This document shows, in pieces, positions 3,452 to 24,457 of a DNA stretch of 64,000 nt. A program made the translations under genes and the position numbers. This DNA comes from Bacteroidales bacterium UBA5219 (GTDB taxonomy: Bacteria; Bacteroidota; Bacteroidia; Bacteroidales; ML635J-15), in NCBI GenBank assembly GCA_002412425.1, contig DHVB01000031.1, forward strand, positions 14,782 to 78,781. Reading direction: 5' to 3'. Position 1 is the stretch's first letter. Each line of letters opens with the position of its first letter. The notes below the pieces were generated by a model that had not been told where the DNA came from, ran no database searches, and saw only the letters and a list, made by a program, of their open reading frames with translations.

Positions 3452-3805
3452 ATGAGTAATGAAATTTTATTATATCAATCAAATGAACTAACTGAACGTA
3501 TTGAAGTAAGGTTAGAAAATGAAACTGTTTGGCTATCACAACAGCAAATGGCAACTTTGTTTCAACAAACAAAGCAAAACATTAGTTTACATATCAACAA
3601 TTGCTTTCGAGAGAAAGAATTAGATAAAAATTCAACTGTCAAGTATTCCTTGACAGTTCAAATTGAAAGAGTAGAAAATCAAAATATGGTTAGTTCCATT
3701 TTAGAACATACCACTCAACACAGTACTACAAAAGTGAAAATGAATAAAAACTCTGTGCAAAATATTATTAATGCAATTGTGGAAAATCATAAACAAATAA
3801 AATAA
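3452..3805 (+). pseudogene. truncated/mosaic RhuM-family paralogue
   Basis: The first 83 nt match the start of the 6766 gene with 1 mismatch. The last ~57 nt are about 90% identical to its 3' end. The middle is diverged and about 170 codons shorter. Confidence 0.55.
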
Positions 3806-3929: not shown

Positions 3930-4367
3930 ATGGCTAAAATAAATAAATCAAATAAAAATTTGCAAATACGGAATAGCACAGCTGAATATTTAACTTTTGC
4001 TTATCAGTCTCAAGGAGACGGTGTCGAAGTTCGTGTGCAAGATGGAACTATTTGGTTATCGCAAAAAAATATGGCTACGATTTTCGATACTTCGAGTGAT
4101 AATATTGGTTTGCACCTAAAAAATATTTATTCAGAAAAAGAATTATCTGAACAATCAACTATCGAGGATTTCTCGGTAGTTCAAATAGAAGGAAATCGCA
4201 AAGTTCGTAGAATAGTTAAGCATTATAATCTTGATGCAGTTATTTCTGTAGGATATAGAGTTAATTCCAAACGTGCTACAGCTTTCAGACAGTGGGCAAC
4301 AAGCATTTTGCGAAATTTTACCTTACATGAAAATATGAACAATCAGAATTTACAAGAAAATGAATAA
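3930..4367 (+). CDS. RhuM-family protein, N-terminal domain only
   Basis: WLSQKNMATIF...VVQIEGNRKVRR...YNLDAVISVGYRVNSKRATAFRQWAT matches the full RhuM-like protein at 6766. Its stop overlaps the hsdR start (ATGAATAA). Confidence 0.65.
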   Translation: MAKINKSNKNLQIRNSTAEYLTFAYQSQGDGVEVRVQDGTIWLSQKNMATIFDTSSDNIGLHLKNIYSEKELSEQSTIEDFSVVQIEGNRKVRRIVKHYNLDAVISVGYRVNSKRATAFRQWATSILRNFTLHENMNNQNLQENE

Positions 4368-6750
4368 AAAAGATCTAAGCGAAAGGGACATATGCACTAA
4401 ATTGATTATACCTGCTCTTGAAAAAGCTGGATGGGATAAGCAATTGCAAATGTTAGAAGAATTCCCTTTTACCGATGGAAGAATATATGTTAGAGGAAAA
4501 CTCACAAAAAGAGGAGAAAGAAAACGAGCTGATATTATTTTATTCTATAAGCCCAATATTCCTGTTGCTATTATTGAAGCTAAACAAAATAAATATTCGG
4601 TAAGAACTGGAATGCAACAAGCTTTAGAATATGCAAGAATATTAGATATTCCTTGTGTGTTCAGTAGCAATGGAGACGGATTCCTTTTTCACGACAAAAC
4701 AGCAACTGATGAAAATATAGAAAAAGAACTAAGTATAGATGAATTCCCAAGTCCTGATGTGCTTTGGGAAAAATACATGAAATATAAAGGACTAATAACA
4801 CCAACTGCACAAAAAATTGCATCGCAAGCATATTTTATTGATAGTACTGGTCGTACTCCAAGATATTACCAACAAATTGCAATAAATAGAACTGTTGAAG
4901 CAATAGCTAATGGACAAAACAGAATTTTACTTGTAATGGCAACAGGTACAGGTAAAACTTATACTGCCTTTCAAGTAATTTATAGGCTTTGGAGAAGTGG
5001 TGCAAAAAAACGAATTTTATTTTTAGCAGACCGCAATGCACTTATTGACCAAACAAGACGTGGCGATTTTAGACATTTCAAAGATAAAATGACTGTAGTA
5101 AAACACCGCCAAATAGATAAAAGTTTTGAAATATATTTAGCTTTATATCAGGGTCTTTCTGGAAGCGATGAGTCTGCCAATGTTTACAAAGAATTTTCTA
5201 AAGATTTTTTTGACTTAGTTGTAATTGACGAGTGCCATCGTGGAAGTGCAAAAGAAGATAGTGCATGGCGAGAAATTCTCAATTATTTTAAAAATGCTAC
5301 ACATATCGGATTAACAGCCACACCAAAAGAAACTAATGAAGTATCAAATATTGAATATTTCGGCGATCCAATTTATACTTATTCGTTGCGACAAGGTATA
5401 GAAGATGGTTTTCTTGCTCCATACCGTGTTATAAGAGTGGCAATAAATGTAGATGTTGAAGGTTGGCGACCCGAACAAGGCAAATTAGATAAAGATAATA
5501 TCGAAGTAGAAGACCGCATATACAACCGCAAGGATTTTGACCGAAATTTAATCATAGAAGAACGAACCAATGTTGTTGCACAAAAAATAAGTGAATTTTT
5601 GAAAGGCTACGACCGTTTTGCCAAAACTATAGTATTTTGTGTCGATATAGAACACGCTGAGCGAATGAGAACAGCATTGGTAAAACAAAACGCTGATTTA
5701 GTTGCCGAAAATCACAAATATATTATGCAAATTACTGGCGATAACGATGAAGGAAAACGAGAATTAGATAATTTTATTAATCCCGAAGAAAAATATCCTG
5801 TCATTGCTACTACTTCAGAATTGATGACAACGGGTATTGATGCACAAACATGTAAAGTAATTGTGTTAGAAACCAACATAAATTCACCAACAAAGTTTAA
5901 GCAAATTATAGGACGTGGTACAAGAATAAACGAAGAATATGGTAAACAATACTTTACTATTCTCGACTTTAGAAATGCAACGGATTTATTTGCCGATACA
6001 GAGTTTGATGGAGATCCAATACGAATAAAACCTGTTTCCGAAGACATTAACTTAGGTAATATAATTGATGAAGAAGAACAAGATATCAGTCCAATAATTG
6101 ATGAAGAAAGTGGTGAGGAAATAGAATTTACACAAACTGAAATCACCTATCCTGAACATGAGTTTTCACCTCTTGAAGTAAACGAAAGAAAAAAAGTTTA
6201 TGTAAATGGTGTTGACGTTTCGATATTGATTAGCCGTAAATTGTATTTCGATCAGCACGGAAAACCAATAACAACAAGTCTTAAAGACCATACAAGAGAA
6301 ATTATTAAAAATCATTATGCTACGTTAGATGATTTTTTAAATAAATGGAACAAAACTGAGCGAAAAGAAGCAATTATAGCAGAATTGACAGAACAAGGTG
6401 TAATGGTAGATGAACTCTATGATGCTGTTGATAGAGAAGTTGATTTATTTGATTTAATTTGCCACGTTGCTTATGAGCAACCACCACTAACACGAAAAGA
6501 GCGAGCAAACAACGTAAAAAAGAGAAACTATTTTACAAAATATGGTGAACAAGCCCGAAAAGTGTTAGAAGCTTTACTTGACAAATACGCTGACCAAGGA
6601 ATTGAAGATATGGAAAATATTAACATTTTGAATGTTCCACCAATTAATAAAATAGGCTCTGTTACAGAAATTATAAAAGCATTTGGCAATCGCGACAAAT
6701 ACAAAAAAGCTATCAAAGAATTGCAAAACGAATTGTATAAAATAGCATAG
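4360..6750 (+). CDS. hsdR: type I restriction endonuclease subunit R (EcoEI-like C-terminus)
   Basis: N-terminal PD-(D/E)xK (ADIILF...IIEAKQ). SF2 motifs MATGTGKT, DECHR, LTATP and QIIGRGTR. Confidence 0.95.
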   Translation: MNKKDLSERDICTKLIIPALEKAGWDKQLQMLEEFPFTDGRIYVRGKLTKRGERKRADIILFYKPNIPVAIIEAKQNKYSVRTGMQQALEYARILDIPCVFSSNGDGFLFHDKTATDENIEKELSIDEFPSPDVLWEKYMKYKGLITPTAQKIASQAYFIDSTGRTPRYYQQIAINRTVEAIANGQNRILLVMATGTGKTYTAFQVIYRLWRSGAKKRILFLADRNALIDQTRRGDFRHFKDKMTVVKHRQIDKSFEIYLALYQGLSGSDESANVYKEFSKDFFDLVVIDECHRGSAKEDSAWREILNYFKNATHIGLTATPKETNEVSNIEYFGDPIYTYSLRQGIEDGFLAPYRVIRVAINVDVEGWRPEQGKLDKDNIEVEDRIYNRKDFDRNLIIEERTNVVAQKISEFLKGYDRFAKTIVFCVDIEHAERMRTALVKQNADLVAENHKYIMQITGDNDEGKRELDNFINPEEKYPVIATTSELMTTGIDAQTCKVIVLETNINSPTKFKQIIGRGTRINEEYGKQYFTILDFRNATDLFADTEFDGDPIRIKPVSEDINLGNIIDEEEQDISPIIDEESGEEIEFTQTEITYPEHEFSPLEVNERKKVYVNGVDVSILISRKLYFDQHGKPITTSLKDHTREIIKNHYATLDDFLNKWNKTERKEAIIAELTEQGVMVDELYDAVDREVDLFDLICHVAYEQPPLTRKERANNVKKRNYFTKYGEQARKVLEALLDKYADQGIEDMENINILNVPPINKIGSVTEIIKAFGNRDKYKKAIKELQNELYKIA

Positions 6751-6765
6751 AAAAATCAATAGATT

Positions 6766-7632
6766 ATGAGTAACGAAATTTTATTATATCAATCAAATGA
6801 ACTAACTGAACGTATTGAAGTAAGGTTAGAAAATGAAACTGTTTGGCTTAACCGTCAGCAGTTAGCATTGCTTTTTGGAAGAGATATTAAAACTATTGGC
6901 AAGCATATCATTAATGTATTTGCAGAAGGAGAACTTCAAAAAACTTCAACTGTCGCAAATTTTGCGACAGTTCAAATTGAAGGTGGCCGAAAAGTTGAAA
7001 GACAGATAGAATTTTACAATTTAGATGTAATAATTTCAGTAGGTTATCGTGTTAAATCAATGCAAGGTACAAAATTTAGAATTTGGGCTACCAATGTTTT
7101 AAAAGATTATTTATTAAAAGGTTATGCACTTAACCAAAGAATGAATCGCGTTGAAAACACAGTGGAAAAACTTGCTGAAAAAGTAGATGAAATTTCATTC
7201 CAAATAAAAACAAGTGAATTGCCTACACAAGGCGTATTCTTTGATGGACAAGTATTTGATGCTTATGAATTAGCTTCAAAAATTATTCGTTCTGCTAAAA
7301 ACAGTATAGTGCTGATTGACAACTATATAGATGAAACTACATTAACTCATTTGGCAAAGAAAAATAAAAATGTAAAAATATTACTACTGACAAAAAATAT
7401 TAGCAAACAATTACAACTTGATGTACAAAAAGCCAATGCTCAATATGGTAATTTTGAAATAAAAAAATTTACTTTAAGCCATGACCGTTTTATTATCATA
7501 GATAATACAGAAATGTATCATTTAGGAGCATCATTAAAAGATTTAGGTAAAAAATGGTTTGCTTTTACAAAAATGAACAAAAACTATGTACAAAATATTA
7601 TTAATGCAATTGCAGAAAATCATAAATCATGA
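6766..7632 (+). CDS. RhuM-family (virulence protein RhuM-like) protein, full length
   Basis: VQIEGGRKVERQIEFYNLDVIISVGYRVKSMQGTKFRIWAT core. It lies between hsdR and hsdM and overlaps the hsdM start by 4 nt (ATGA). Confidence 0.75.
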   Translation: MSNEILLYQSNELTERIEVRLENETVWLNRQQLALLFGRDIKTIGKHIINVFAEGELQKTSTVANFATVQIEGGRKVERQIEFYNLDVIISVGYRVKSMQGTKFRIWATNVLKDYLLKGYALNQRMNRVENTVEKLAEKVDEISFQIKTSELPTQGVFFDGQVFDAYELASKIIRSAKNSIVLIDNYIDETTLTHLAKKNKNVKILLLTKNISKQLQLDVQKANAQYGNFEIKKFTLSHDRFIIIDNTEMYHLGASLKDLGKKWFAFTKMNKNYVQNIINAIAENHKS

Positions 7633-9053
7633 CTAACATAAGTGGAATAATAAAATCTATTAGGGATATTTTTAGGAAAGACCCTGGCTTAAGTGGTGAT
7701 GCACAACGCATAGAGCAATTGGGCTGGATGATTTTTCTAAAACTTTTTGATGACAAAGACAAAGAAAAGGAATTACTTGATTTGAATTACAAATCGCCTA
7801 TTCATAGAGAATTACAATGGCGCAATTGGGCTGAAGATGACGAAGGTATCACTGGCGATGAACTAATTAACTTTATCAACAACCAACTTTTCCCTACTTT
7901 AAAAGAATTACAAGTTGGCGTTGAAGATAAGTTAGGTATAATCATTAGGCAGATTTTTGAAGGCACCAACAACTATATGAAAAGCGGTACTACCTTTAGA
8001 CAAGCCATAAATAAACTCAACGAAATTGACTTTAACATCAGTAAAGAACATCACTTGTTTAATGCAATTTATGAAGATATTTTACAAGGACTGGCAGCCA
8101 AAAAAGACACTGGAGAATTTTACACGCCAAGAGCTATAACACAATTCATTATTGATATGATAAACCCACAGTTAGGTGAAAAAATATGCGACCCTGCTTG
8201 TGGAACTGCTGGTTTCTTAGTATGTGCAGTCGAACACTTGAAAAAACAGGTAGAGAACATTAACGACCATGAAATTTTACAAAAAACTATAACAGGTACA
8301 GAACTAAAACCACTACCTTTTATGTTGAGTGTAATAAATCTTATTACTCACGATATTGCAATACCAAAAATTGATAACACCGATGCTTTAAGCCGTGAAA
8401 TTACCTCAATAAAACAAAAAGACCGTGTAGATATTATTGTAGCAAACCCACCATTTGGTGGAGTGGTAGGAGACGGCATGGAAACAAATTTCCCGATGAA
8501 TTTCCGTACAAAAGAAAGTGCAGACTTGTTTTTAATACTTTTTATACAAATGTTAAAACAAGGTGGACGTGCTGGAATTGTGCTACCAGACGGAAGTTTA
8601 ACAGGCGATGGTGTAAAACAGCGTATAAGACAAAAATTATTAGAAGATTGCAGTGTACACACTATTGTTAGGTTGCCACAATCGGTCTTTGCACCTTATG
8701 CAACAGTAAACACCAATCTTATTTTCTTTGAAAAAGGCAAAGAAACCAAAGAAATTTGGTATTACGAACATACTCTACCCGAAGGATATAAAGCATACAG
8801 CAAAACAAAACCTATACAACTTTCTGAGTTTGATGAAATAAAAAAATGGTGGAATAACCGCGTTGAAAATGAGCTAGCATGGAAAGTGCCTATTAAAACC
8901 ATTATTGAGCGAGATTACGATTTAGATATTAAAAATCCTAATAAACTTGTGGAAGAAGTGGTATATGATAGAAAAGAAATAATTTCTAACTTAAAATCTT
9001 CACTTACTAAATGCCAAGTTTTATTAGAAGAATTAATTATATCAAAGGATTAG
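7629..9053 (+). CDS. hsdM: type I R-M DNA methyltransferase subunit M
   Basis: Motif I DPACGTAGFL, motif IV VANPPFGG, and an HsdM N-terminal domain. Confidence 0.95.
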   Translation: MTNISGIIKSIRDIFRKDPGLSGDAQRIEQLGWMIFLKLFDDKDKEKELLDLNYKSPIHRELQWRNWAEDDEGITGDELINFINNQLFPTLKELQVGVEDKLGIIIRQIFEGTNNYMKSGTTFRQAINKLNEIDFNISKEHHLFNAIYEDILQGLAAKKDTGEFYTPRAITQFIIDMINPQLGEKICDPACGTAGFLVCAVEHLKKQVENINDHEILQKTITGTELKPLPFMLSVINLITHDIAIPKIDNTDALSREITSIKQKDRVDIIVANPPFGGVVGDGMETNFPMNFRTKESADLFLILFIQMLKQGGRAGIVLPDGSLTGDGVKQRIRQKLLEDCSVHTIVRLPQSVFAPYATVNTNLIFFEKGKETKEIWYYEHTLPEGYKAYSKTKPIQLSEFDEIKKWWNNRVENELAWKVPIKTIIERDYDLDIKNPNKLVEEVVYDRKEIISNLKSSLTKCQVLLEELIISKD

Positions 9054-9056
9054 AAT

Positions 9057-10550
9057 ATGGCAAAGGAAACTTCTTCAATAATATTCAAAAAACTGGTTGA
9101 TAGCCCTGTTGGAATTATTTCCGAATTCATTACTAATAAGATTTCGAGTAAATTTGGTTATGAACCATTAAATAAATATTTCCACGAAATTCAAACAGGA
9201 AAAACACCACCGATGAGTAATCCGAAATATTATGATGCAAACGATATTGAGTGGGTAAAACCTTCTGACATAGGTTTTGAAAAATACATTACTGCATCTA
9301 ATTGGATATCAAATAAAACTGAAGTCGATAATAAAGCGACGATTTATAAGCCCAATACAGTTCTTATTGTTTGTATTGGAGGTGGAATTGGCAGGTTAGG
9401 CATAGTCAATAAAAAAAGCTCTTCAAATCAACAAATAACAGGAATTCTCTTTGATGAAAATGTATTAGCTGAATATGTTTACTATTACTTTTTACCACGT
9501 TATAAAGTCTTTGAAAAAGAAGCATCAAAGTCAACTTTACCAATAATAAATCAAAAAGGGCTTGGTAGTCTTGATTTTGTTTGTCCTGAACTATCTGCTC
9601 AAAAGGAAATTGTCAGATATTTAGACTACTGTAAAGAGTGCTTAGATAATGAAGAATATCCTTTAAAAACTGATTTTGAGTTATATAAAGATGTGTTTGA
9701 TTTTGCTAATAGAGTTTTTAAAACCTTTTATACACAAAAGACATTGTTGTCAGAATGTCAATTACAACTCACCCACATCGAAAACCTCACTCAAGCTATT
9801 TTGCAAGAAGCAGTACAAGGCAAATTAGCACCACAAGACCCTAATGATGAGCCTGCAACAGAATTGCTTAAACGTATAAAAGAAGAAAAAAAGAAAGTAG
9901 ATAATAGCAAAAAACAAAAACCATTACCACCAATAAAACCTGAAGAAATTCCATTTGAAATTCCAGATAGTTGGGTGTGGTGTAGGTTGGGGGAGATAGG
10001 TAAAACTCAAACAGGTACAACGCCACCAACAGCTAATAAAAAATATTTTGGAAAAGACATCCCATTTGTTAAGCCTGCTGATATTAGTATTTCGGGAATA
10101 AACTATTATAATGAAGGGCTAACTTTAGCAGGTTTAGAGAAAGGTGTTTTTGTTGAAAAAGATTCCTTATTGATGGTTTGTATTGGAGGTTCAATAGGTA
10201 AATCCAATTATACAAATAGAAATATAAGTTGTAATCAGCAAATCAATACAATAAAAGGATACTGTGATATAAGTGGTCAATTTCTTCAGTACTTTTTACA
10301 GTCAACTTATTTCCAAAAAGCAGTATGGTCTAAATCATCAGGTGGAACAACACCAATAATAAATAAAAGTAAATGGGAAAGCATTCTAATCCCTCTTCCC
10401 CCACTACCCGAACAAAAACGTATTGTAGCAGAAATAGAAAAGCAATTAGCTAAAACCGAACAACTTAAAAAATATATTACATCTAACCAAGAAGCCACAG
10501 AGCAACTGCTAAAAGCATTGTTGCATGAGGCGTTTGAGGGGGGAAAATAA
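9057..10550 (+). CDS. hsdS: type I R-M specificity subunit S
   Basis: Two target-recognition domains (GKTPP.../GTTPP...) separated by conserved helices (LPPLPEQKRIVAEIE). It starts 3 nt after hsdM. Confidence 0.9.
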   Translation: MAKETSSIIFKKLVDSPVGIISEFITNKISSKFGYEPLNKYFHEIQTGKTPPMSNPKYYDANDIEWVKPSDIGFEKYITASNWISNKTEVDNKATIYKPNTVLIVCIGGGIGRLGIVNKKSSSNQQITGILFDENVLAEYVYYYFLPRYKVFEKEASKSTLPIINQKGLGSLDFVCPELSAQKEIVRYLDYCKECLDNEEYPLKTDFELYKDVFDFANRVFKTFYTQKTLLSECQLQLTHIENLTQAILQEAVQGKLAPQDPNDEPATELLKRIKEEKKKVDNSKKQKPLPPIKPEEIPFEIPDSWVWCRLGEIGKTQTGTTPPTANKKYFGKDIPFVKPADISISGINYYNEGLTLAGLEKGVFVEKDSLLMVCIGGSIGKSNYTNRNISCNQQINTIKGYCDISGQFLQYFLQSTYFQKAVWSKSSGGTTPIINKSKWESILIPLPPLPEQKRIVAEIEKQLAKTEQLKKYITSNQEATEQLLKALLHEAFEGGK

Positions 10551-10587
10551 AAGAAAGGAGAAAATTGGAGAATAAGGGAAAATGATG

Positions 10588-10595
10588 TAGATTTG
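10588..10595 (+). promoter_or_regulatory. Bacteroidota-type -7 promoter box (TAgaTTTG)
   Basis: Matches the TAnnTTTG consensus. It lies 30 nt upstream of the ATG at 10625, in the 74-nt gap after hsdS. Confidence 0.35.
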
Positions 10596-10624
10596 TAAAT
10601 TATATCATTTTAAAAAGAATTAAT

Positions 10625-11677
10625 ATGGAAATACAATTTTATACATTATTAAAAGTAGATAATGCAACAAATTCCGTATCTTTTGAAACTTTTGCTAATA
10701 CACAGAATATTCAAGATTATATCTGGGAATTAATCAATAATTGTGTTGATAATGAAGGTGATAGAGAATATATTTTTGAACCAACATTGCAAACAACCAA
10801 AAATTATATAGATAACATTATTCAAGATAGTAACAATAGAAATGAAATATGCAAATTATTGGCAGAAAAATTATTAGTTGTTGAGAATGAAACACAAGAG
10901 AGAATTGCTCATTTACAAAAAGAAATTCCAAAGGGAATTCTAATGATATCATTTTCAAAAATGACAGAAATAGAATATAAGTTTGTTATTACAAAAGCAG
11001 ATTATTCAGAATTTTTGGAAGAACTAAGTGGAGATAAAAGAAGTGGATTACCTACTAAAAAGAAAATCTTCAAATCATTTATTATGAATGTTTCATCAAA
11101 TGAGAATGGCGAATTTGAATATGGGAAAATAATCACATATGACTCGAATACCTCAACAAAGGCTGTTTATTGGTGGAAAACTTTTTTGGAATTAAGTGAA
11201 GTAAGAGATAACGAGAAAAATACTTTAACTGCATATAACGCTATAAAGAAAAATATAATTGACCCGTTGCGACGTACACATAAACAAGATTATTTGTATT
11301 TAAGAAATACTACAATTGGCTATTTTCGGACAGACGGTGATTTTGATATAAACCATTATAAAGATAATATTATTGGCAGTTACCAACCATTTGATAAATC
11401 ACTTGATATTAATGAGTTAAAAAAGAAAATTGAAAAACTACCACAAAAAAATAAGTTTGATAATATTTTTCAAAAAACACCACGAGTAGTAACTGATAAA
11501 TTCAAAGATGTTATAAAGCTTACAAATGAGATTGATTTAAATTTAAAACAAGATATCTTAAATATTGAACGAATTATCAAACCACATGAAGATGGTCAAG
11601 GTAATCAATATATTATGATTTTGAGTTCTGAAGGTTATCAGTATGCAGAAGGATTAACAAAAAGTCGAAATGAATAA
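10625..11677 (+). CDS. hypothetical protein, possibly a divergent NdpA/YejK-like nucleoid-associated protein
   Basis: 350-aa ORF. The landmark order (IPKGILMI, KADYSEFLEE, KKIFKSF, AVYWWKTFLELSEV) parallels the NdpA-like protein at 13171. It overlaps the next gene (ATGAATAA). Confidence 0.6.
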   Translation: MEIQFYTLLKVDNATNSVSFETFANTQNIQDYIWELINNCVDNEGDREYIFEPTLQTTKNYIDNIIQDSNNRNEICKLLAEKLLVVENETQERIAHLQKEIPKGILMISFSKMTEIEYKFVITKADYSEFLEELSGDKRSGLPTKKKIFKSFIMNVSSNENGEFEYGKIITYDSNTSTKAVYWWKTFLELSEVRDNEKNTLTAYNAIKKNIIDPLRRTHKQDYLYLRNTTIGYFRTDGDFDINHYKDNIIGSYQPFDKSLDINELKKKIEKLPQKNKFDNIFQKTPRVVTDKFKDVIKLTNEIDLNLKQDILNIERIIKPHEDGQGNQYIMILSSEGYQYAEGLTKSRNE

Positions 11678-13160
11678 TGTATGTCTTAATGTAATTAAAC
11701 TTTTTTCAACTTCTTTTGAAATAATATCAGAAAAAGAAGATTGCATTCGGTTTATAGCTGAATATCAAATAAATAATTTGATGTTACCATCAGAAGCAGA
11801 AGTTGCTAATTTGATTAATTCACGCGATAAAATTGCTATATACTTCTTTGAAACAGACGACGCAGAGTCTATTGATTATATTTCAACTCAAGCAAATAGT
11901 TGGAGTGATTTTATAACCGAATTACAAACAAATAATTTACAACAAGGGAAGATTAAAATTCTTGTTGAAAAAAAATTTGGAAATGGGCAGCTATCAATAT
12001 ATGATATTGATAAGTTTACAGAATATATAAATTCACTTTCATTATCTCAGTTTCTTGCTGTTATTAATGAGAGTTTTAATACATTTTTAATTTTTGAAGT
12101 TCAAGATAAAAATTACCTGCAATGGGAAACTAAAACCATAGCTTTTATTGCTATGAATAGTACTTATAATATGTCCGATATAGGAAATGTTAACAGAACA
12201 AATAGAATTAATGAAGCTAGAAGTTTATGCTATTGCGATATTGAAAAATATAAGCTTTTACCTGAGGATTTATTTTGTTTCCAATTTGATGAGAACAACC
12301 TTCTGCAAAAAGCTTTTCATGAAGCATGTATGCTCTATGTGTTTAGTTTCATTCTAGACTATTCTGCAATAAGACAAGATATTTATGAATACAAATTAAA
12401 TGGATTTAGAACTTTAAATGGATTCATTAACACAAAACAGTTGTCTAAAGTCGATATAGATATTAACTCGTGTAAAACTGTTTACGAAATTTATCAATGG
12501 TTATATTCGGGAGGTAACAATATTGATAAAATTAATATCGCTCGAAATATTATTTCATTAAATATAAATCCAACGACTTTACGTGTTGAACCTTCCGCAT
12601 TTGAATCTATTCTTTCTAATTATAAAATATATGAAAAAGAGAATGTAAAACAATATCTACAAGTAAGGAATAAGTTATCAGAACTATTGATAGATCTTCA
12701 AGCAAAAATTTCTGATATTGTTGATTCTTTTATTGGTGATTTTAAGAAGAATATGTTAACATTGATTTCATTTTTTATTTCAGTGATTGTAATTAGAGTT
12801 GTATCCAAAGGTGATTTTATTGGTGGGTTTACAAATGAAATTATCGGACTTTCATTTGTTTTTTTGATAATATCTATTGGTATGCTTCTCTATTCTCGTT
12901 GGGAGTTAACGAAGAAGATAGATTTATACAATAAGCACTATGACCAAATAAAAGATAGGTATAAAGGAGTTTTAAGTAGTATTGAGTTAGAAAATATTTT
13001 TGACGAATGTGATCCCGAAAAAAATAATAAAAATGAATCTTTTGTAGCAAAACAGAAAAAGCTATATACATGGATATGGTTTTTATCCATCTTTCTACTA
13101 ATTATATTTTTAGTTGTTGTTTATTTTAAAAATAACGATATATCTATTTGTTGCAAATAA
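11670..13160 (+). CDS. hypothetical protein with a ~360-aa soluble N-terminal region and three C-terminal hydrophobic (TM-like) segments
   Basis: 496-aa ORF translationally coupled to the upstream gene. Hydrophobic stretches are MLTLISFFISVIVIRVV, IIGLSFVFLIISIGMLLY and LYTWIWFLSIFLLIIFLVVVYF. I recognise no catalytic motif. Confidence 0.65.
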   Translation: MNNVCLNVIKLFSTSFEIISEKEDCIRFIAEYQINNLMLPSEAEVANLINSRDKIAIYFFETDDAESIDYISTQANSWSDFITELQTNNLQQGKIKILVEKKFGNGQLSIYDIDKFTEYINSLSLSQFLAVINESFNTFLIFEVQDKNYLQWETKTIAFIAMNSTYNMSDIGNVNRTNRINEARSLCYCDIEKYKLLPEDLFCFQFDENNLLQKAFHEACMLYVFSFILDYSAIRQDIYEYKLNGFRTLNGFINTKQLSKVDIDINSCKTVYEIYQWLYSGGNNIDKINIARNIISLNINPTTLRVEPSAFESILSNYKIYEKENVKQYLQVRNKLSELLIDLQAKISDIVDSFIGDFKKNMLTLISFFISVIVIRVVSKGDFIGGFTNEIIGLSFVFLIISIGMLLYSRWELTKKIDLYNKHYDQIKDRYKGVLSSIELENIFDECDPEKNNKNESFVAKQKKLYTWIWFLSIFLLIIFLVVVYFKNNDISICCK

Positions 13161-13170
13161 ATCAAATTAT

Positions 13171-14208
13171 ATGTTATACACAGAATACATTTCTATAAAA
13201 AATACTACATTACACGTAGTCGGGAATAAATTGAATCAGGATAATGTCATATTATCGACAAATAGTATAAGTATTAATCCTAATATGGAAAAAATTCTAT
13301 CAGATTATTTCCTCACCCCCTTCACCTCCGAAGAATATTACCAACTCTATCACGAAAGCGATTTGGCTTTAAATGAAGTTTATACTTACATATCAAAGAT
13401 TTTCGATGAGCCAGAACAACTTTACGAACAATCGGTAAACTTAGCCAAACATTTATATGAGCAAAGTACGCATCCCAAAATAAAAGGCGGCGAATTTTAT
13501 ACTGTTTATTTTAAAGATTGTATTTTGGATGGAGAAACCTTAGATGCAGTAGGTTTATTCAAATCGGAGAACAAAGATACCTTTTTGAAAGTGTTACAAC
13601 AAAATGGTAATTTCAACTTGGAAAGCGATAAAGGTATTAATATTAAAAAGCTGGACAAGGGTTGCCTAATTTTCAACAAAGAACGTGAAAATGGATATGT
13701 TGTTGCAGTAGTTGATAATACAAACAAAGGTGTAGAGGCACAATACTGGATTGACGACTTTCTTCACGTTCGCCAACGCAAAGACGAATATGCTAATACT
13801 CAAAACTTTATGTCATTAGCAAAAAACTTTGTTGTTAAAGAATTGCCAAAAGAATTTGAGGTTTCAAAAGCCGACCAAATTGATTTGTTAAACAAGTCGT
13901 TACATTTTTTCAAAGAAAAAGACACCTTCGATATCGACGATTTTGCCAACGAGGTAATTTCACAACCCGAAATAATTGAAAAATTTTACCAGTATAAGCA
14001 GGAGTACGAAAACCAAAGTGATGTCGTTATCGACAATCAGTTTGCTATTTCAGAAGCAGCTCGCAAAAAACAACAACGTTCCTACAAGCGTGTTATTAAT
14101 CTGGATAAAAAAATTCAAATTATAATTTCTGGTAATCGCCAAAACATAGAACAAGGCGAAGACGAACGTGGTAAGTTTTATAAGGTTTATTATAATAATG
14201 AAGATTAG
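13171..14208 (+). CDS. nucleoid-associated protein, NdpA/YejK (37-kDa NAP) family-like
   Basis: HVVGNK..., KGGEFYTVYF, GLFKSENKDTFLKV, AQYWIDDFL. I chose the ATG at 13171 because the track start at 13114 overlaps the upstream gene. Confidence 0.65.
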   Translation: MLYTEYISIKNTTLHVVGNKLNQDNVILSTNSISINPNMEKILSDYFLTPFTSEEYYQLYHESDLALNEVYTYISKIFDEPEQLYEQSVNLAKHLYEQSTHPKIKGGEFYTVYFKDCILDGETLDAVGLFKSENKDTFLKVLQQNGNFNLESDKGINIKKLDKGCLIFNKERENGYVVAVVDNTNKGVEAQYWIDDFLHVRQRKDEYANTQNFMSLAKNFVVKELPKEFEVSKADQIDLLNKSLHFFKEKDTFDIDDFANEVISQPEIIEKFYQYKQEYENQSDVVIDNQFAISEAARKKQQRSYKRVINLDKKIQIIISGNRQNIEQGEDERGKFYKVYYNNED

Positions 14209-14210
14209 GA

Positions 14211-14390
14211 ATGGTAGATGAAAAGGGCAACGTTATTATGATGAAAAAAGAAGAGACAATTACCAAAAAAGATTCGACAGGAAAAGTTGTATATCGCAAA
14301 GAGACACGGCAGGTAAATGGAGTGAATGACCAAACCATTTTAGTCGCCGACATCTTTGCTAAGTGGAAAAAGCAGGAGTGCATTGCATAG
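14211..14390 (+). CDS. small hypothetical ORF (59 aa)
   Basis: ATG lies 2 nt after the NdpA-like stop. It reads MVDEKGNVIMMKKEETITKKDSTGKVVYRKETRQVNGVNDQTILVADIFAKWKKQECIA. It is below the ORF-track cutoff and has no recognisable motif. Confidence 0.25.
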   Translation: MVDEKGNVIMMKKEETITKKDSTGKVVYRKETRQVNGVNDQTILVADIFAKWKKQECIA

Positions 14391-14414: not shown

Positions 14415-15551
14415 ATGAGCAAGTTAATCAAAATAAACGAAGAATATGCGGGGTGGATAAAGGATTTAAGTCTGCGCTTCCGCCAAAGTCAAATAAAGGC
14501 TGCCGTAAAAGTGAACGGCGAGTTATTGAAATTCTATTGGGAACTCGGACGTGATATTGTAGAAAAACAAGTAGAAAGCAAGTGGGGAGAAGGCTTTTTC
14601 AAAAATTTGAGCATGGACTTACAAGAGGCATTACCCGGAGTAAAAGGATTGTCAATACAAAATCTCTATTATACGAAAAAGTTTTATCTGCTTTATTGTC
14701 AATCAAATAAATATTTCCCACAACTTGTGGAAGAATTACAAAAAGCAGGTGATTCTTCAATTTTCCCACAAGCTGTGGGAAAATTAAAAGAGATGGGGAA
14801 ATCCTCAAGCTCTTCGCTATTTTCTGAGATACTTGAAGAATTATTGCAAATTCCGTGGGGTCACCATCGCTATATTATAGACAAATGCAATGATAACCCC
14901 TCAAAAGCATTTTTCTATGTCCGACAAACTATCGCAAACAATTGGAGCCGTGCCATGCTGTTGAATTTTCTCGATACCAACCTGTATGAACGACAGGGTA
15001 ATGCTGTCACTAATTTCAAGACAACACTTCCAGCAGTGAATAGCGATCTTGCCCAGCAACTTACTAAAGACCCGTATTGCTTTGATTTTGTAAGTCTTAC
15101 AGAACCATTTAAAGAAAAGGAGTTAAAAGATGCCCTATTGCACAACATAACAAAGTTTTTGTTGGAATTAGGAAACGGATTTGCTTTCATGGGCAATGAA
15201 TATAGGCTTAAAGTCGGAGAAACGGAACAGTTTCTTGATCTACTATTTTACAATGTAAACCTCAAAGCATACGTGGTGGTTGAAGTGAAAACAACTGCCT
15301 TTGAACCTGCTCAACTGGGACAATTAAGCTCATATGTATCATGTGTGAACCATTTGCTTAGAAAAAGCGACGACAATGCGACCATCGGACTGTTGGTATG
15401 TAAAGATAAAGACAATGTGTTTGCCCAATATTCATTGGAAGGTTACAATCAACCTCTTGGAATATCAGAATTTAAGGTGGATGAAATTTTTCCAAAAGAT
15501 TTCAAAAGCACACTGCCAAGCATTGAGGACATTGAACGAGAACTATCCTAA
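14415..15551 (+). CDS. DUF1016 / YhcG-family PDDEXK nuclease-like protein
   Basis: N-terminal region typical of YhcG (IKAAVKVNGELLKFYWELGRDI). C-terminal PD-ExK-like core (LDLLFYNVNLKAYVVVEVK). Confidence 0.8.
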   Translation: MSKLIKINEEYAGWIKDLSLRFRQSQIKAAVKVNGELLKFYWELGRDIVEKQVESKWGEGFFKNLSMDLQEALPGVKGLSIQNLYYTKKFYLLYCQSNKYFPQLVEELQKAGDSSIFPQAVGKLKEMGKSSSSSLFSEILEELLQIPWGHHRYIIDKCNDNPSKAFFYVRQTIANNWSRAMLLNFLDTNLYERQGNAVTNFKTTLPAVNSDLAQQLTKDPYCFDFVSLTEPFKEKELKDALLHNITKFLLELGNGFAFMGNEYRLKVGETEQFLDLLFYNVNLKAYVVVEVKTTAFEPAQLGQLSSYVSCVNHLLRKSDDNATIGLLVCKDKDNVFAQYSLEGYNQPLGISEFKVDEIFPKDFKSTLPSIEDIERELS

Positions 15552-21424: not shown

Positions 21425-24400
21425 TTACCAAACTCTAAAATCATTCATTAAATTTTCTTGTCGTGAAGTAGGTTGTTGTTTACCATTGCTAAGTTCTTTA
21501 ACACCGTTAAAAATATAATTTCTTAATTCGGAAACGCTTATAATTTTGTCTTTATTGGTGTCGGCTTTTCCTTTTTGAATACCGTTAATTAAGCAATATG
21601 TAAAAATACCGTTTTCAATTTTTTCGATTTCTAAAGCGTAACCACTTCCTGAAGCAGCTGAAATAACAACTGTTCCTGTTCCTTTTTTCAAATCAGCAAA
21701 TAATAAACGCATTAATTCAAATGAATTTCTTAATCCTGTTTTTGGCTTATTTTTGTTTTTATTTGTAAACATTGTTACACCCCTAGTATCATCTTCGCTA
21801 TTTTTATCGTCTGTAGCAAAATCATCATCTTTATCAACTTCGCCAGAGTGACAAGCATCCATTAATAATAATTTATTTCGTGCTGGAATACCGTCTAAAA
21901 TGCCTTCTATTTCATCATATTTTAAACCATTTTTAGCTGGATCGTCAAAATCTATATCAACAGTTGCAAAATAAAAATCTAATTCATCATCTAGCAGACC
22001 GTGTCCTGCAATGTGTACATAAACATAATCATCTACTTTGCTTTTCATTAATTTATCTTTTAATGCCAACACATTATCTCTTGTACATTCTTTATTATGA
22101 AGTGAATAAACATTTACATTATTAAAAGATTTACTATTCTCAAAAAGTTTCATAAATCCATCGCCGTCATTTATTGTATATCTTAAATTGTATTCTGATT
22201 GTTCATATTCTGAAACAGCTAAGGAAATTAAATATAAATCTGGTTTTTCTTTATTGGCTTTATCATAAAAAATCTTTACTTCTTGTTTTAAAGATTCTAC
22301 ACCTTTAGAATTTAGGCATGAAATATAAATATAATTATCACCATCTGATAAAGGAATTTCTACTTCTTTAATTATAGATTTTGAATTTTCTTCTAATAAA
22401 GATAATCCTTTTGTACCATAAATAGGCACATCGTTTACATATATATTTAGTCTATCTAAAACATAATTATGGTCTAGCATTTCTAAATTTAATTTACAAG
22501 TTTTTTGAGTTGTTTTTAAGCTAATATTAGCAGCATTAGCAATTTTTATTTCTGGTAAATCAATTTTGCCGTCCAACATTTTTTCGGTAAAACCAAGTTT
22601 TGCTAAACGTTTTTGATATGCTTTATGATAAACATCAATAATATCTTCATCAAAATATCCAAAAGATTCTAAAATATAATCTGGGCGATTAAATTTAAGG
22701 TCAAATTGTTCGGCAGGAAAAACTTTTCCATTAAAATTAAATCCCATTCCTGTTAGTGCATCGCCAGTTGCCATGTAGTAATTATCGGGAGTAATAAAAA
22801 TTAATTTACCCATATCCACAACATAAATACTTAGCAAAATTTCTCCTGTTGATAAGTCCCATACATTCATAGAAGCATCTTCAGCAGCACTAATTAAATA
22901 ATCTTTGCCTTTTAATATTTGAAAATCATTTATAGGTCCTCTATGTCCTTTAAAAGTTATTTCTTTTCCATTATGTTTTCTTATAATTTCATATCCATTA
23001 CAAGTGTAAACATCGCCATTGCTATAATCTTTTTTAACAATATAATTATCTGCTGATTTTTCTTTTATAATTTCTGTAATTAAGAGATTATTAGGATTTT
23101 CTTTATTTAATAAATTACTAGTATTATTACTTTCTTGTTGCTTATATCCAGTAATATTCATATTAAATTTAACTCCACGATCTTGCTCTTCACCTAAACC
23201 GATAAAATCTTTATTATCAGTAAAAATTATTTGATGAAAAATATGTTTATTATCTTTTGAGCCTAAACCCAAATTTGTTCTTTTTGATTTTCTTTGTTCT
23301 TTAGGCAAATTTATTTTTAAACCAGATATTGATGATACTTTCAAAACAGGATTTGATAAACCCCATTTTCCGCCAGAATAGGCAATGTTTTTACCATCTG
23401 GGCTAATTGCAACTGAATATACATTTTCATCAAACCAATTTTTGCGTGTTTTATCATCGCTACTTGCTCTTTGCTGTATTCCTTTAATATTGAAAGTTTG
23501 TTTTGCTTTTGTTGATTTAGGGTGTAAAATAAAATATTGTAAAACTTTTTTATTTTCAAAATCCACTATTGCTGCTCTATTATCGCCTCCTGCAGTGCCT
23601 ATAATATTTGAATTTGGTGAAAAACAAATATCGTTTATTTTTCCATTATGTGCATTAATTCCTTCGCAACTAACTTTATCTTCTTCAAATTTTAGTAAAT
23701 AAACAAAACCAAGCTCGTCTCCAAAAGCAATTAAATTATCATTACTAAAACTTTCTAAACTTGAAATATTAAAGCTACGTGGAATTATACGTTTTTCCAA
23801 ATCATAACTTGGAGTTTGCCAAACTGATATTGACCTATCTGCTGAAGCTACTGCTACATATTTATTATTGGGTGAAAAAGCAATATGGTTAATTCTTGCA
23901 AAGTGAGATTTAGTAAATTTTTTAACTTTTAATTTATTATTACAAAAATACAAACCGCCTTTTTCGTCTCCAGCAACAATAATATTTTCATCGTTAGATG
24001 TTATTGCATAAGTAAAATCAGTATATGCATCACGATTATATAGTTTAGACATGCCTTTTCTAACCACAGAGCCTTTCATTTTTAATTTATCAGTTCTAGT
24101 TTTCATAGAATACTGCTCAAAAGAAATATTAAGTTCTAATTTCAAGGTCAACATATCGAAGTGGTAAACTAATGATTGACCATAAATATATAAATCTCTT
24201 TCGTTTTTAAAGTTTAAAGCAACTAAATCATCTTGAGCTTGAATTTTTGTTGAATAAAATACTTTCCCTGATATTAAATCGTTGATTACTAATTCGTTAT
24301 TAGAATCAATACTTGCTACATATCTAGATGTTGGGTCCCATTCAACAAATAAAACACTGCCTGTATGTCCTGTTTGAACAACAGGAATAATTGTTTGAGA

Positions 24401-24457
24401 GCTTAAATAAAAAGTATTAAGCAATAATAGCAAAAATATGTAAATTGACTTTTTCAT
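21425..24457 (-). CDS. secreted WD40-repeat protein with C-terminal caspase-like (peptidase C14) domain
   Basis: Signal peptide and multiple WD40 units (GHTGSV..., HFARINHIAFSPNNKYVAVASADRSISVWQ, GHRGPIND...). Caspase His-Cys dyad is HIAGHG / LLLMDACHSG. An EF-hand-like loop (DTNKDKIISVSE) lies near the C-terminus. Confidence 0.85.
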   Translation of the reverse strand: MKKSIYIFLLLLLNTFYLSSQTIIPVVQTGHTGSVLFVEWDPTSRYVASIDSNNELVINDLISGKVFYSTKIQAQDDLVALNFKNERDLYIYGQSLVYHFDMLTLKLELNISFEQYSMKTRTDKLKMKGSVVRKGMSKLYNRDAYTDFTYAITSNDENIIVAGDEKGGLYFCNNKLKVKKFTKSHFARINHIAFSPNNKYVAVASADRSISVWQTPSYDLEKRIIPRSFNISSLESFSNDNLIAFGDELGFVYLLKFEEDKVSCEGINAHNGKINDICFSPNSNIIGTAGGDNRAAIVDFENKKVLQYFILHPKSTKAKQTFNIKGIQQRASSDDKTRKNWFDENVYSVAISPDGKNIAYSGGKWGLSNPVLKVSSISGLKINLPKEQRKSKRTNLGLGSKDNKHIFHQIIFTDNKDFIGLGEEQDRGVKFNMNITGYKQQESNNTSNLLNKENPNNLLITEIIKEKSADNYIVKKDYSNGDVYTCNGYEIIRKHNGKEITFKGHRGPINDFQILKGKDYLISAAEDASMNVWDLSTGEILLSIYVVDMGKLIFITPDNYYMATGDALTGMGFNFNGKVFPAEQFDLKFNRPDYILESFGYFDEDIIDVYHKAYQKRLAKLGFTEKMLDGKIDLPEIKIANAANISLKTTQKTCKLNLEMLDHNYVLDRLNIYVNDVPIYGTKGLSLLEENSKSIIKEVEIPLSDGDNYIYISCLNSKGVESLKQEVKIFYDKANKEKPDLYLISLAVSEYEQSEYNLRYTINDGDGFMKLFENSKSFNNVNVYSLHNKECTRDNVLALKDKLMKSKVDDYVYVHIAGHGLLDDELDFYFATVDIDFDDPAKNGLKYDEIEGILDGIPARNKLLLMDACHSGEVDKDDDFATDDKNSEDDTRGVTMFTNKNKNKPKTGLRNSFELMRLLFADLKKGTGTVVISAASGSGYALEIEKIENGIFTYCLINGIQKGKADTNKDKIISVSELRNYIFNGVKELSNGKQQPTSRQENLMNDFRVW

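Follow-up and report, generated by a model that had tools for sequence, protein, structure and literature searches.

A divergent NA37-related protein and a membrane protein form a conserved gene pair, probably a PANGU-like defence module, in a Bacteroidales defence island and elsewhere

What is the role of the three tightly packed, co-directional genes that lie between a type I restriction-modification (R-M) operon and a DUF1016 nuclease gene in Bacteroidales bacterium UBA5219? The DNA analysed, referred to here as the window, is a stretch of 64,000 nucleotides from this organism (GenBank assembly GCA_002412425.1, contig DHVB01000031.1, positions 14,782 to 78,781 of the forward strand), and coordinates are those of the window unless a different locus is named. 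Comparison of homologous loci, designated by L numbers, shows that the conserved unit consists of the first two genes, P1 and P2, rather than of all three, and that this unit is real, widespread and tightly coupled. By analogy with systems in which a nucleoid-associated protein (NAP) reports on the state of the genome, we consider it probable, with moderate confidence, that the module is a PANGU-like abortive-infection defence, similar in architecture to Type II PANGU and built from different protein families. The genes, and the transmembrane (TM) and other parts of the P2 protein, are as follows.

10625-11677, plus strand: P1 gene, 350 residues; a divergent NA37/YejK-like NAP, the proposed sensor subunit
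11670-13160, plus strand: P2 gene, 496 residues; the proposed membrane effector
11670-12734, plus strand: acidic N-domain of P2 (residues 1 to about 355), predicted to be cytoplasmic and of alpha/beta structure
12750-12806, plus strand: predicted segment TM1 of P2 (residues 361-379), score 2.04 in a Kyte-Doolittle window of 19 residues; position kept in 41 of 41 family members
12840-12896, plus strand: predicted segment TM2 of P2 (residues 391-409), Kyte-Doolittle score 2.36; conserved
13071-13127, plus strand: predicted segment TM3 of P2 (residues 468-486), Kyte-Doolittle score 2.79; conserved
13171-14208, plus strand: P3 gene, 345 residues; a canonical NA37/YejK-type NAP, the accessory second NAP
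14211-14390, plus strand: small open reading frame (ORF), 59 residues; probably outside the module

The limits of these four ORFs, including the overlap of 8 nt between the P1 stop and the P2 start through ATGAATAA, the gap of 10 nt between P2 and P3 and the 2 nt between the P3 stop and the 59-codon ORF, are exactly as given in the sequence-only reading, an earlier annotation made from the letters of the window. The first methionine is conserved at the chosen start of P1, P2 and P3 in the respective family alignments, and because it is invariant in that of P3, the ATG at 13171 is favoured over a longer ORF that begins with TTG.

The sequence-only reading had also treated the three genes as a single module, and in this it has to be revised. 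Loci were collected with a P2 profile from species-representative genomes (51 loci) and supplemented by metagenome look-ups and by one chromid. In 56 of 57 loci a P1 homologue is located immediately 5′ of P2, the remaining locus lying at a contig end, and in all 54 unique loci in which both genes are intact they are adjacent, with a spacing of -26 to +29 nt. P3, on the other hand, lies directly 3′ of P2 in 20 of the 54, which belong to one clade of the P2 tree, and within this clade it has been lost secondarily on two occasions (L008 and L063). The P1-P2 pair is therefore the conserved unit, to which P3 is an accessory confined to one clade. The coupling of the pair extends to its divergence, as the pairwise distances of P1 and P2 are correlated (r 0.90, Mantel p 0.001), while those of P3 follow P2 with r 0.86 and P1 with r 0.76. 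The pair is found in many Bacteroidota, in Proteiniclasticum (Bacillota), in Photobacterium (Gammaproteobacteria) and in the archaeon Methanolapillus, that is, in four phyla, and homologues named from Treponema and Campylobacter rectus indicate that the P2 family probably extends to Spirochaetota and Campylobacterota as well. No other conserved neighbour of the module was found, including any alternative third gene in the two-gene clade, and no DNA resembling P1-P2 was found in 5,426 E. coli genomes.

Some individual loci deserve mention. In two from Chitinophagaceae (L046 3103-4821 and L050 4417-6141), a protein of about 573 residues, with a C-terminal adenosine-deaminase domain (PF00962, 5.9e-21), is encoded 2-10 nt 3′ of a two-gene P1-P2 module and may be either a third component specific to the clade or an additional effector. 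About 1 kb of inserted DNA splits P1 in L045, whereas in L052 both genes are fragmented and in L053 P2 is truncated. Four loci (L003-L006) carry at 9526-10563 an intact NA37 gene of 345 residues, a P3 homologue (E 5e-147) that was missed in the source annotation, where small ORFs were called on the minus strand instead. Carriage of the module by phages, suggested by matches to PHROG families (phrog_30064 for P1, 3e-27; phrog_32650 for P2, 1.7e-38), was rejected: neither a tblastn search of 50,697 GenBank phages nor a pattern scan of IMG/VR detected it.

The proteins of the first and third genes belong to one fold family, and they are very unequal members of it. As the sequence-only reading had proposed from short motifs, P3 is of the NdpA/YejK type: Pfam PF04245 (NA37) matches residues 14-323 with an E-value of 7.6e-33 and 114.7 bits, relative to a gathering cut-off of 24.6, which identifies P3 as a full-length NA37/YejK-type protein. 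P1 matched no family in Pfam, NCBIfam or PADLOC, and a distant kinship with P3, likewise proposed in that reading, was recovered by more sensitive comparisons. BLASTP aligns P1 with P3 over 113 residues around a shared xYWxxxFL motif (E 4e-7), and a comparison of the P1 family (42 sequences) with the P3 family (17 sequences) by hhalign gives 96.9% probability and an E-value of 1.4e-10 over 263 columns. The Pfam NA37 model detects just two of the 42 sequences of the P1 family, with E-values of about 1e-4, and a few P1 homologues already bear the NCBI label 'nucleoid-associated protein'. On these alignments P1 is a very divergent NA37 paralogue of P3, best described as a remote NA37 relative and not as a member of PF04245 as Pfam defines it. 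The AlphaFold2 model of P1 has a mean predicted local distance difference test (pLDDT) score of 84.1; a Foldseek search with this model found no match at E<0.09 in a PDB copy that apparently contains no NA37 structure and is thus uninformative about the fold, and sequence searches of PDB returned no matches for P1, P2 or P3.

P2 supplies what we regard as the effector end of the module. Its C-terminal membrane anchoring and its want of a recognisable catalytic motif, both noted in the sequence-only reading, are upheld by three hydrophobic segments whose positions agree in all 41 homologues of the alignment and by the failure of P2 to match any family in Pfam, PADLOC, NCBIfam or the sequences of PDB. 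Profile searches placed P3 and P1 with NA37, and neither profile nor structure searches placed P2 with anything known; weak matches of P1 and P2 to DndD, DUF7078 and similar families were dismissed as noise. The AlphaFold2 model (pLDDT 84.1) predicts an alpha/beta N-domain (residues 1 to about 300), followed by a helix that runs for about 70 residues into TM1, a long helix containing TM2, a helical cytoplasmic loop of about 58 residues and the C-terminal TM3, and Foldseek searches of PDB and BFVD with it found nothing at E<0.09. The N-domain carries a net charge of -14 (isoelectric point, pI, 4.7), and it is acidic in all 41 homologues, mostly with a pI of 4.4-5.4. Conservation is highest in residues 281-409 and lowest in the N-domain, a pattern that fits a constant effector joined to a sensor-binding domain that co-evolves with its partner. 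At 50% identity, an exhaustive profile search resolved the family into 1,152 clusters, of which 955 match at E<=1e-10, and almost all of the 1,152 are full-length proteins of about 500 residues. P2 is best read, on its predicted structure, as the representative of a structurally novel family of putative membrane effectors.

The surroundings of the module are consistent with a role in defence. In the window it has a type I R-M system on one side and a DUF1016/YhcG nuclease gene (PADLOC candidate PDC-S02) on the other, a defence-island setting recognised already in the sequence-only reading, and about 22 metagenomic contigs from a single lineage repeat this arrangement exactly. The docking of the module to an R-M operon, which that reading made part of its description, is not constant across loci, the flanks varying from one to the next and being rich in defence and conjugative-element genes. 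It does recur in a Muribaculaceae locus (L013, 7384-8784 and 12389-13384), in which the three-gene module is inserted between hsdS (29 nt 5′) and a RhuM gene (4 nt 3′) in the same manner as in the window although the two P2 proteins are only 37% identical, so that the association with RhuM-bearing type I R-M operons is recurrent. Elsewhere the module is followed directly by Hachiman (HamA and helicase) and a TIR gene, with an integrase 5′ (L064-67), has an OLD-family nuclease gene 24 nt 3′ (L012) or, in the archaeal locus, adjoins a Schlafen-type (SLFN) helicase gene (L056), the OLD, hsdS/RhuM and SLFN neighbours all being within 71 nt. Other copies have integrases, an AAA_15/AAA_21 ATPase, PAPS-reductase/DUF3440 and HEPN genes nearby (L068-70), a PNP_UDP_1 gene, a large neighbouring ORF, a helicase and an integrase (L002), insertion sequences, group II intron reverse transcriptase genes and another DUF1016 gene (L001), or conjugative-transposon genes beside the module (L003-6 and L063). 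Among 303 neighbours within 4 kb at 52 loci, classified with Pfam and given here as raw counts, the defence-type families include AAA_15 (8), AAA_21/AbiEii (6), N6_Mtase (5), ResIII (5) and Eco57I (4), as well as SMC_N, GmrSD, TIR_2, DUF4365 and restriction endonucleases, and the conjugative-element families include relaxase, coupling protein, DUF3945/DUF4099 and integrases.

Two precedents connect this gene order with immunity, and in view of them the statement in the sequence-only reading that no named system has such an architecture is out of date. In PANGU, YejK-like NAPs reside on chromosomal DNA and are freed when phage nucleases degrade the genome, and the freed NAP binds and activates an effector via an acidic DNA-mimicking (DMK) domain (bioRxiv 10.64898/2026.04.06.716658). 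Type II PANGU consists of the NAP Pag2A and of Pag2B, in which a DMK domain at the N-terminus is combined with a TM domain at the C-terminus; protection against T4 needs both genes, and Pag2A departs from the nucleoid upon infection (10.64898/2026.04.06.716658). DefensePredictor system DS-17 ('D390') of E. coli, listed among validated anti-phage systems (Science 2026, PMC13092281), comprises WP_000355468.1 (zinc ribbon plus NA37, 391 residues) and WP_000150292.1 (404 residues, with a hydrophobic C-terminal region) (PMC13092281), and the partner gene starts 2 nt after the NA37 gene.

By analogy with these systems, P1, in all systems of this kind, and P3, in the clade that has it, would sit on the chromosome as nucleoid-bound sensors. 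When a phage degrades or remodels the host DNA, they would come free and attach to P2 at its acidic cytoplasmic N-domain, from which a signal passing through the conserved juxtamembrane helix could activate the TM hairpin. P2 would then damage the membrane and stop the infected cell before phage release, thereby aborting the infection. DNA binding by P1 and P3, their release on genome damage, their contact with P2, killing at the membrane and the antiviral phenotype itself are all proposed here on the strength of the PANGU precedent. The sensor of the three-gene form may be a heteromer of P1 and P3, a plausible arrangement since in Type I PANGU PagA and PagB make up an asymmetric 2:1 complex (10.64898/2026.04.06.716658).

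A number of observations weigh against this interpretation. Acidity alone does not set the P2 N-domain apart, since P1 (pI 5.45) and P3 (pI 5.0) are also acidic. Comparison of the P2 family (41 sequences) with the DS-17 partner family (34 sequences) by hhalign gives 0.2% probability (E 0.3) and thus no detectable homology between the two; the latter profile was built because hhalign of single DS-17 sequences with the family profiles was uninformative (even P3 versus DS-17A failed), and hmmsearch with the DS-17B profile found nothing in any module locus. The mechanistic model comes from a preprint, the authors of which call the activation of Pag2B by Pag2A unknown (10.64898/2026.04.06.716658). 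Three loci have disrupted copies of the module (L045, L052 and L053), which points to its occasional decay, the neighbour counts are uncorrected for genomic background, and some loci have housekeeping neighbours, e.g. SecA, DnaE, FtsW and LepA.

NAPs encoded by mobile elements are well documented (PMC6606824), an example being Pnd, the NdpA-like protein of plasmid pCAR1, and a module composed of NAPs and a membrane protein could in principle tether DNA. The module might thus belong to the maintenance or stealth functions of mobile elements, with the NAPs organising or silencing the DNA of the element and P2 anchoring DNA or NAPs at the membrane and so serving segregation, entry exclusion or the regulation of transfer. 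Many of the loci lie in conjugative elements or near integrases, in the company of relaxases, T4 coupling protein, DUF3945/DUF4099/topoisomerase, RteC and UmuC, although this context does not discriminate, as defence systems are common cargo of such elements. Because the window copy and several others stand in chromosomal islands, where their neighbours are R-M, Hachiman or OLD genes and transfer genes are absent from the vicinity, because no partition ATPase or other conserved partner accompanies the pair, and because the closest validated analogues, DS-17 and PANGU, are antiviral, we regard a maintenance function as quite unlikely. Stabilisation of the island by a toxin-antitoxin (TA) type of addiction, with P2 as the membrane toxin and P1 as the antitoxin, would also account for a tight two-gene operon with a stop/start overlap and the membrane protein second, and for the island and mobile-element contexts, without any sensing of phage. 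Both proteins are large for this purpose (350 and 496 residues), neither matched a TA family in Pfam or PADLOC, and the analogous PANGU operons are reported not to be classical TA systems, neither single-gene construct being toxic (10.64898/2026.04.06.716658). We consider addiction highly improbable.

A further alternative leaves the function of P1 and P2 intact and concerns P3, which could be a bystander, i.e. an independent island-borne nucleoid protein that acts as a regulator or as an organiser of xenogeneic DNA next to a pair that works alone. It is absent from 34 of the 54 unique loci and was lost twice within its own clade, and its much greater proximity to Pfam NA37 than that of P1 suggests separate recruitment and not duplication of P1. 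Nevertheless, P3, where present, is always immediately 3′ of P2 on the same strand, overlapping it or at most 10 nt away, this adjacency is maintained despite very different flanks, and its distances track those of P2 and P1. A bystander P3 is, in our estimation, unlikely. The PANGU-like abortive-infection module remains the explanation that we prefer, with P1 and P2 at its core and P3 as a putative second sensor protein of the three-gene form.

The features of the window on either side of the module are the following.

4360-10550, plus strand: type I R-M operon, assigned from the Pfam records of identical genes in L058
4360-6750, plus strand: hsdR, in the type I R-M operon upstream of P1
6766-7632, plus strand: RhuM gene, 288 residues, embedded in the type I R-M operon
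7629-9053, plus strand: hsdM of the type I R-M operon
9057-10550, plus strand: hsdS, last gene of the type I R-M operon, upstream of P1
10588-10595, plus strand: TAGATTTG, a weakly indicated candidate for a Bacteroidota -7 promoter box, 30 nt 5′ of the P1 start
14415-15551, plus strand: gene for a DUF1016_N plus YhcG_C PDDEXK nuclease (Pfam; PADLOC candidate PDC-S02, 3e-151)

The gap of 74 nt between the hsdS stop and the P1 start contains the box TAGATTTG that the sequence-only reading took for a promoter. The box is present, and its position weakly suggests such a function; the pattern TAnnTTTG is no commoner in the window than expected by chance (113 occurrences versus 124 +/- 11 in shuffled sequences). 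As no plus-strand terminator was found between hsdS and P1, read-through from the R-M operon is an equally possible route of P1 expression. Sigma-70-type promoter sites were set aside as a guide, having occurred at the level of the shuffles (28 versus 27.7), and base composition likewise failed to mark the island (G+C fraction 0.313 in the island, 0.281 in the module, 0.294 in the rest of the window). No tRNA genes were found in the 64-kb window. The 59-codon ORF does begin 2 nt after P3, as that reading noted, but it was rejected as a part of the module, since its tblastn matches are confined to five contigs of the window's own lineage. At other loci a different gene lies directly 3′ of P3, e.g. 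HamA in L064.

Several further observations concern the island and its edges. Three RhuM-family ORFs are woven into the R-M operon (3452-3805, 3930-4367 and 6766-7632). The first of these, of 117 residues, has its first 28 and about 15 C-terminal residues in common with the 288-residue protein of the third and looks like an internally deleted duplicate of it, while the second overlaps the hsdR start by 8 nt. At the left edge of the island, just 5′ of coaX, a gene for a Bro-N domain protein of 288 residues (1627-2493) hints at DNA of phage or element origin. At the right edge, two sister metagenome contigs have an extra gene for a 133-residue 23S_rRNA_IVP-family protein between the DUF1016 nuclease gene and corA (L059 14263-14664; L060 14263-14592) that is missing from the equivalent position of the window, about 15.6-15.9 kb, which marks this edge as a variable hotspot. 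Some 6 kb from the island, on the minus strand (21425-24457), a gene for a protein of 1,010 residues with Peptidase_C14 (caspase-like) and WD40-repeat domains, assigned from the Pfam record of the identical L058 gene, could be another cell-death or defence-type gene.

In relation to known systems, the module shares with the housekeeping proteins E. coli YejK and Pseudomonas NdpA the NA37 fold family, to which P3 clearly and P1 remotely belongs. Unlike the genes for these proteins, those of the module are accessory, stand in an operon with a membrane protein in variable, horizontally moving regions and, in the three-gene form, encode two paralogues side by side. Kiwa resembles the module in combining a membrane protein with a DNA-associated soluble protein (predicted in the case of the module) in a defence-island setting. 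Its small four-TM KwaA, which lacks the large cytoplasmic domain of P2, and its DUF4868 protein KwaB nonetheless differ from the module in gene order, size and TM placement, and no Kiwa or DUF4868 model in PADLOC or Pfam matched P1, P2 or P3 at E<=1, in agreement with the sequence-only reading, which had set Kiwa aside.

DS-17 is a closer counterpart, having a NAP gene first and, in a tight operon, a second gene for a partner that resembles P2 in its hydrophobic C-terminal region and acidic N-domain (pI 5.2). Its NAP differs from P1 in having an N-terminal zinc ribbon and in being readily recognised as NA37. At >=99% identity, the DS-17 operon (L072 and its E. coli matches) occurs in 106 of 5,426 complete E. 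coli genomes, next to the gene for antiterminator Q, which identifies it as a lambdoid-prophage moron, whereas the module has its place in islands and conjugative elements, and searches of phage collections did not reveal it. The DS-17 partner family is probably the same as the Pag2B family.

The closest resemblance is to Type II PANGU. In both, a gene for an NA37-fold protein lies immediately 5′ of one for a protein that combines a soluble, acidic N-domain with a TM region at the C-terminus, and the module agrees with the PANGU class in encoding a YejK-like NAP (NA37/IPR007358), P3 by Pfam and P1 by profile-profile comparison, in an operon with a non-NAP gene at gaps under 40 bp. Linkage to R-M and Hachiman is common to the module and to Type II PANGU as presented in the preprint, and the logic that we propose by analogy, a NAP as sensor of genome integrity and a membrane protein as abortive-infection effector, is the same. 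The module differs in that its P1 is too divergent for Pfam NA37, in that one clade carries a second, canonical NAP gene and in that its hosts are mainly Bacteroidota, while the preprint of April 2026 reports PANGU mainly from Bacillota and Pseudomonadota, with Bacteroidota represented only sporadically (10.64898/2026.04.06.716658). P2, of about 500 residues and with three TM segments, was compared with Pag2B by description only.

The PANGU survey was seeded with the NA37 hidden Markov model (HMM) at E<1e-10 and yielded ten operon clusters, of which Cluster4 has two conserved hypothetical proteins 5′ of the core NAP and is given no test in the preprint text (10.64898/2026.04.06.716658). Because P1 is invisible to this HMM, the three-gene form would look like Cluster4, the wording for which, again compared by description only, fits exactly if P1 was scored as hypothetical, and the two-gene form (34 of 54 loci), having no NAP visible to the HMM, would escape the survey altogether. 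We therefore advance tentatively, as a possibility that falls short of being probable, the broader proposal that P1-P2 constitutes a large branch of NAP-based immunity unseen by NA37 HMMs, with an effector that has no structural relative, and that P1 and P3 of the three-gene form are an obligate heteromeric sensor. If so, this sensor would represent the asymmetric PagA dimer in subfunctionalised form, and genome integrity sensed by NAPs would be a far commoner trigger of immunity than HMM-seeded surveys show, notably in human gut and oral Bacteroidota. If the module works like PANGU, a sensor subfamily missed by standard NA37 models would be added to the class, together with a large effector family (about 1,150 clusters) that has no Pfam entry or structural relative, the two-NAP architecture could show how the asymmetric sensor dimer evolved, and the class would extend to Bacteroidota of the human gut and mouth, a group in which tests of defence systems have been few. 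Two unannotated protein families also gain a testable function. The combination of a NAP with a TM protein is thus of a kind already known from PANGU and DS-17; what the module brings to it are new protein families, a layout with two NAPs and a Bacteroidota setting.

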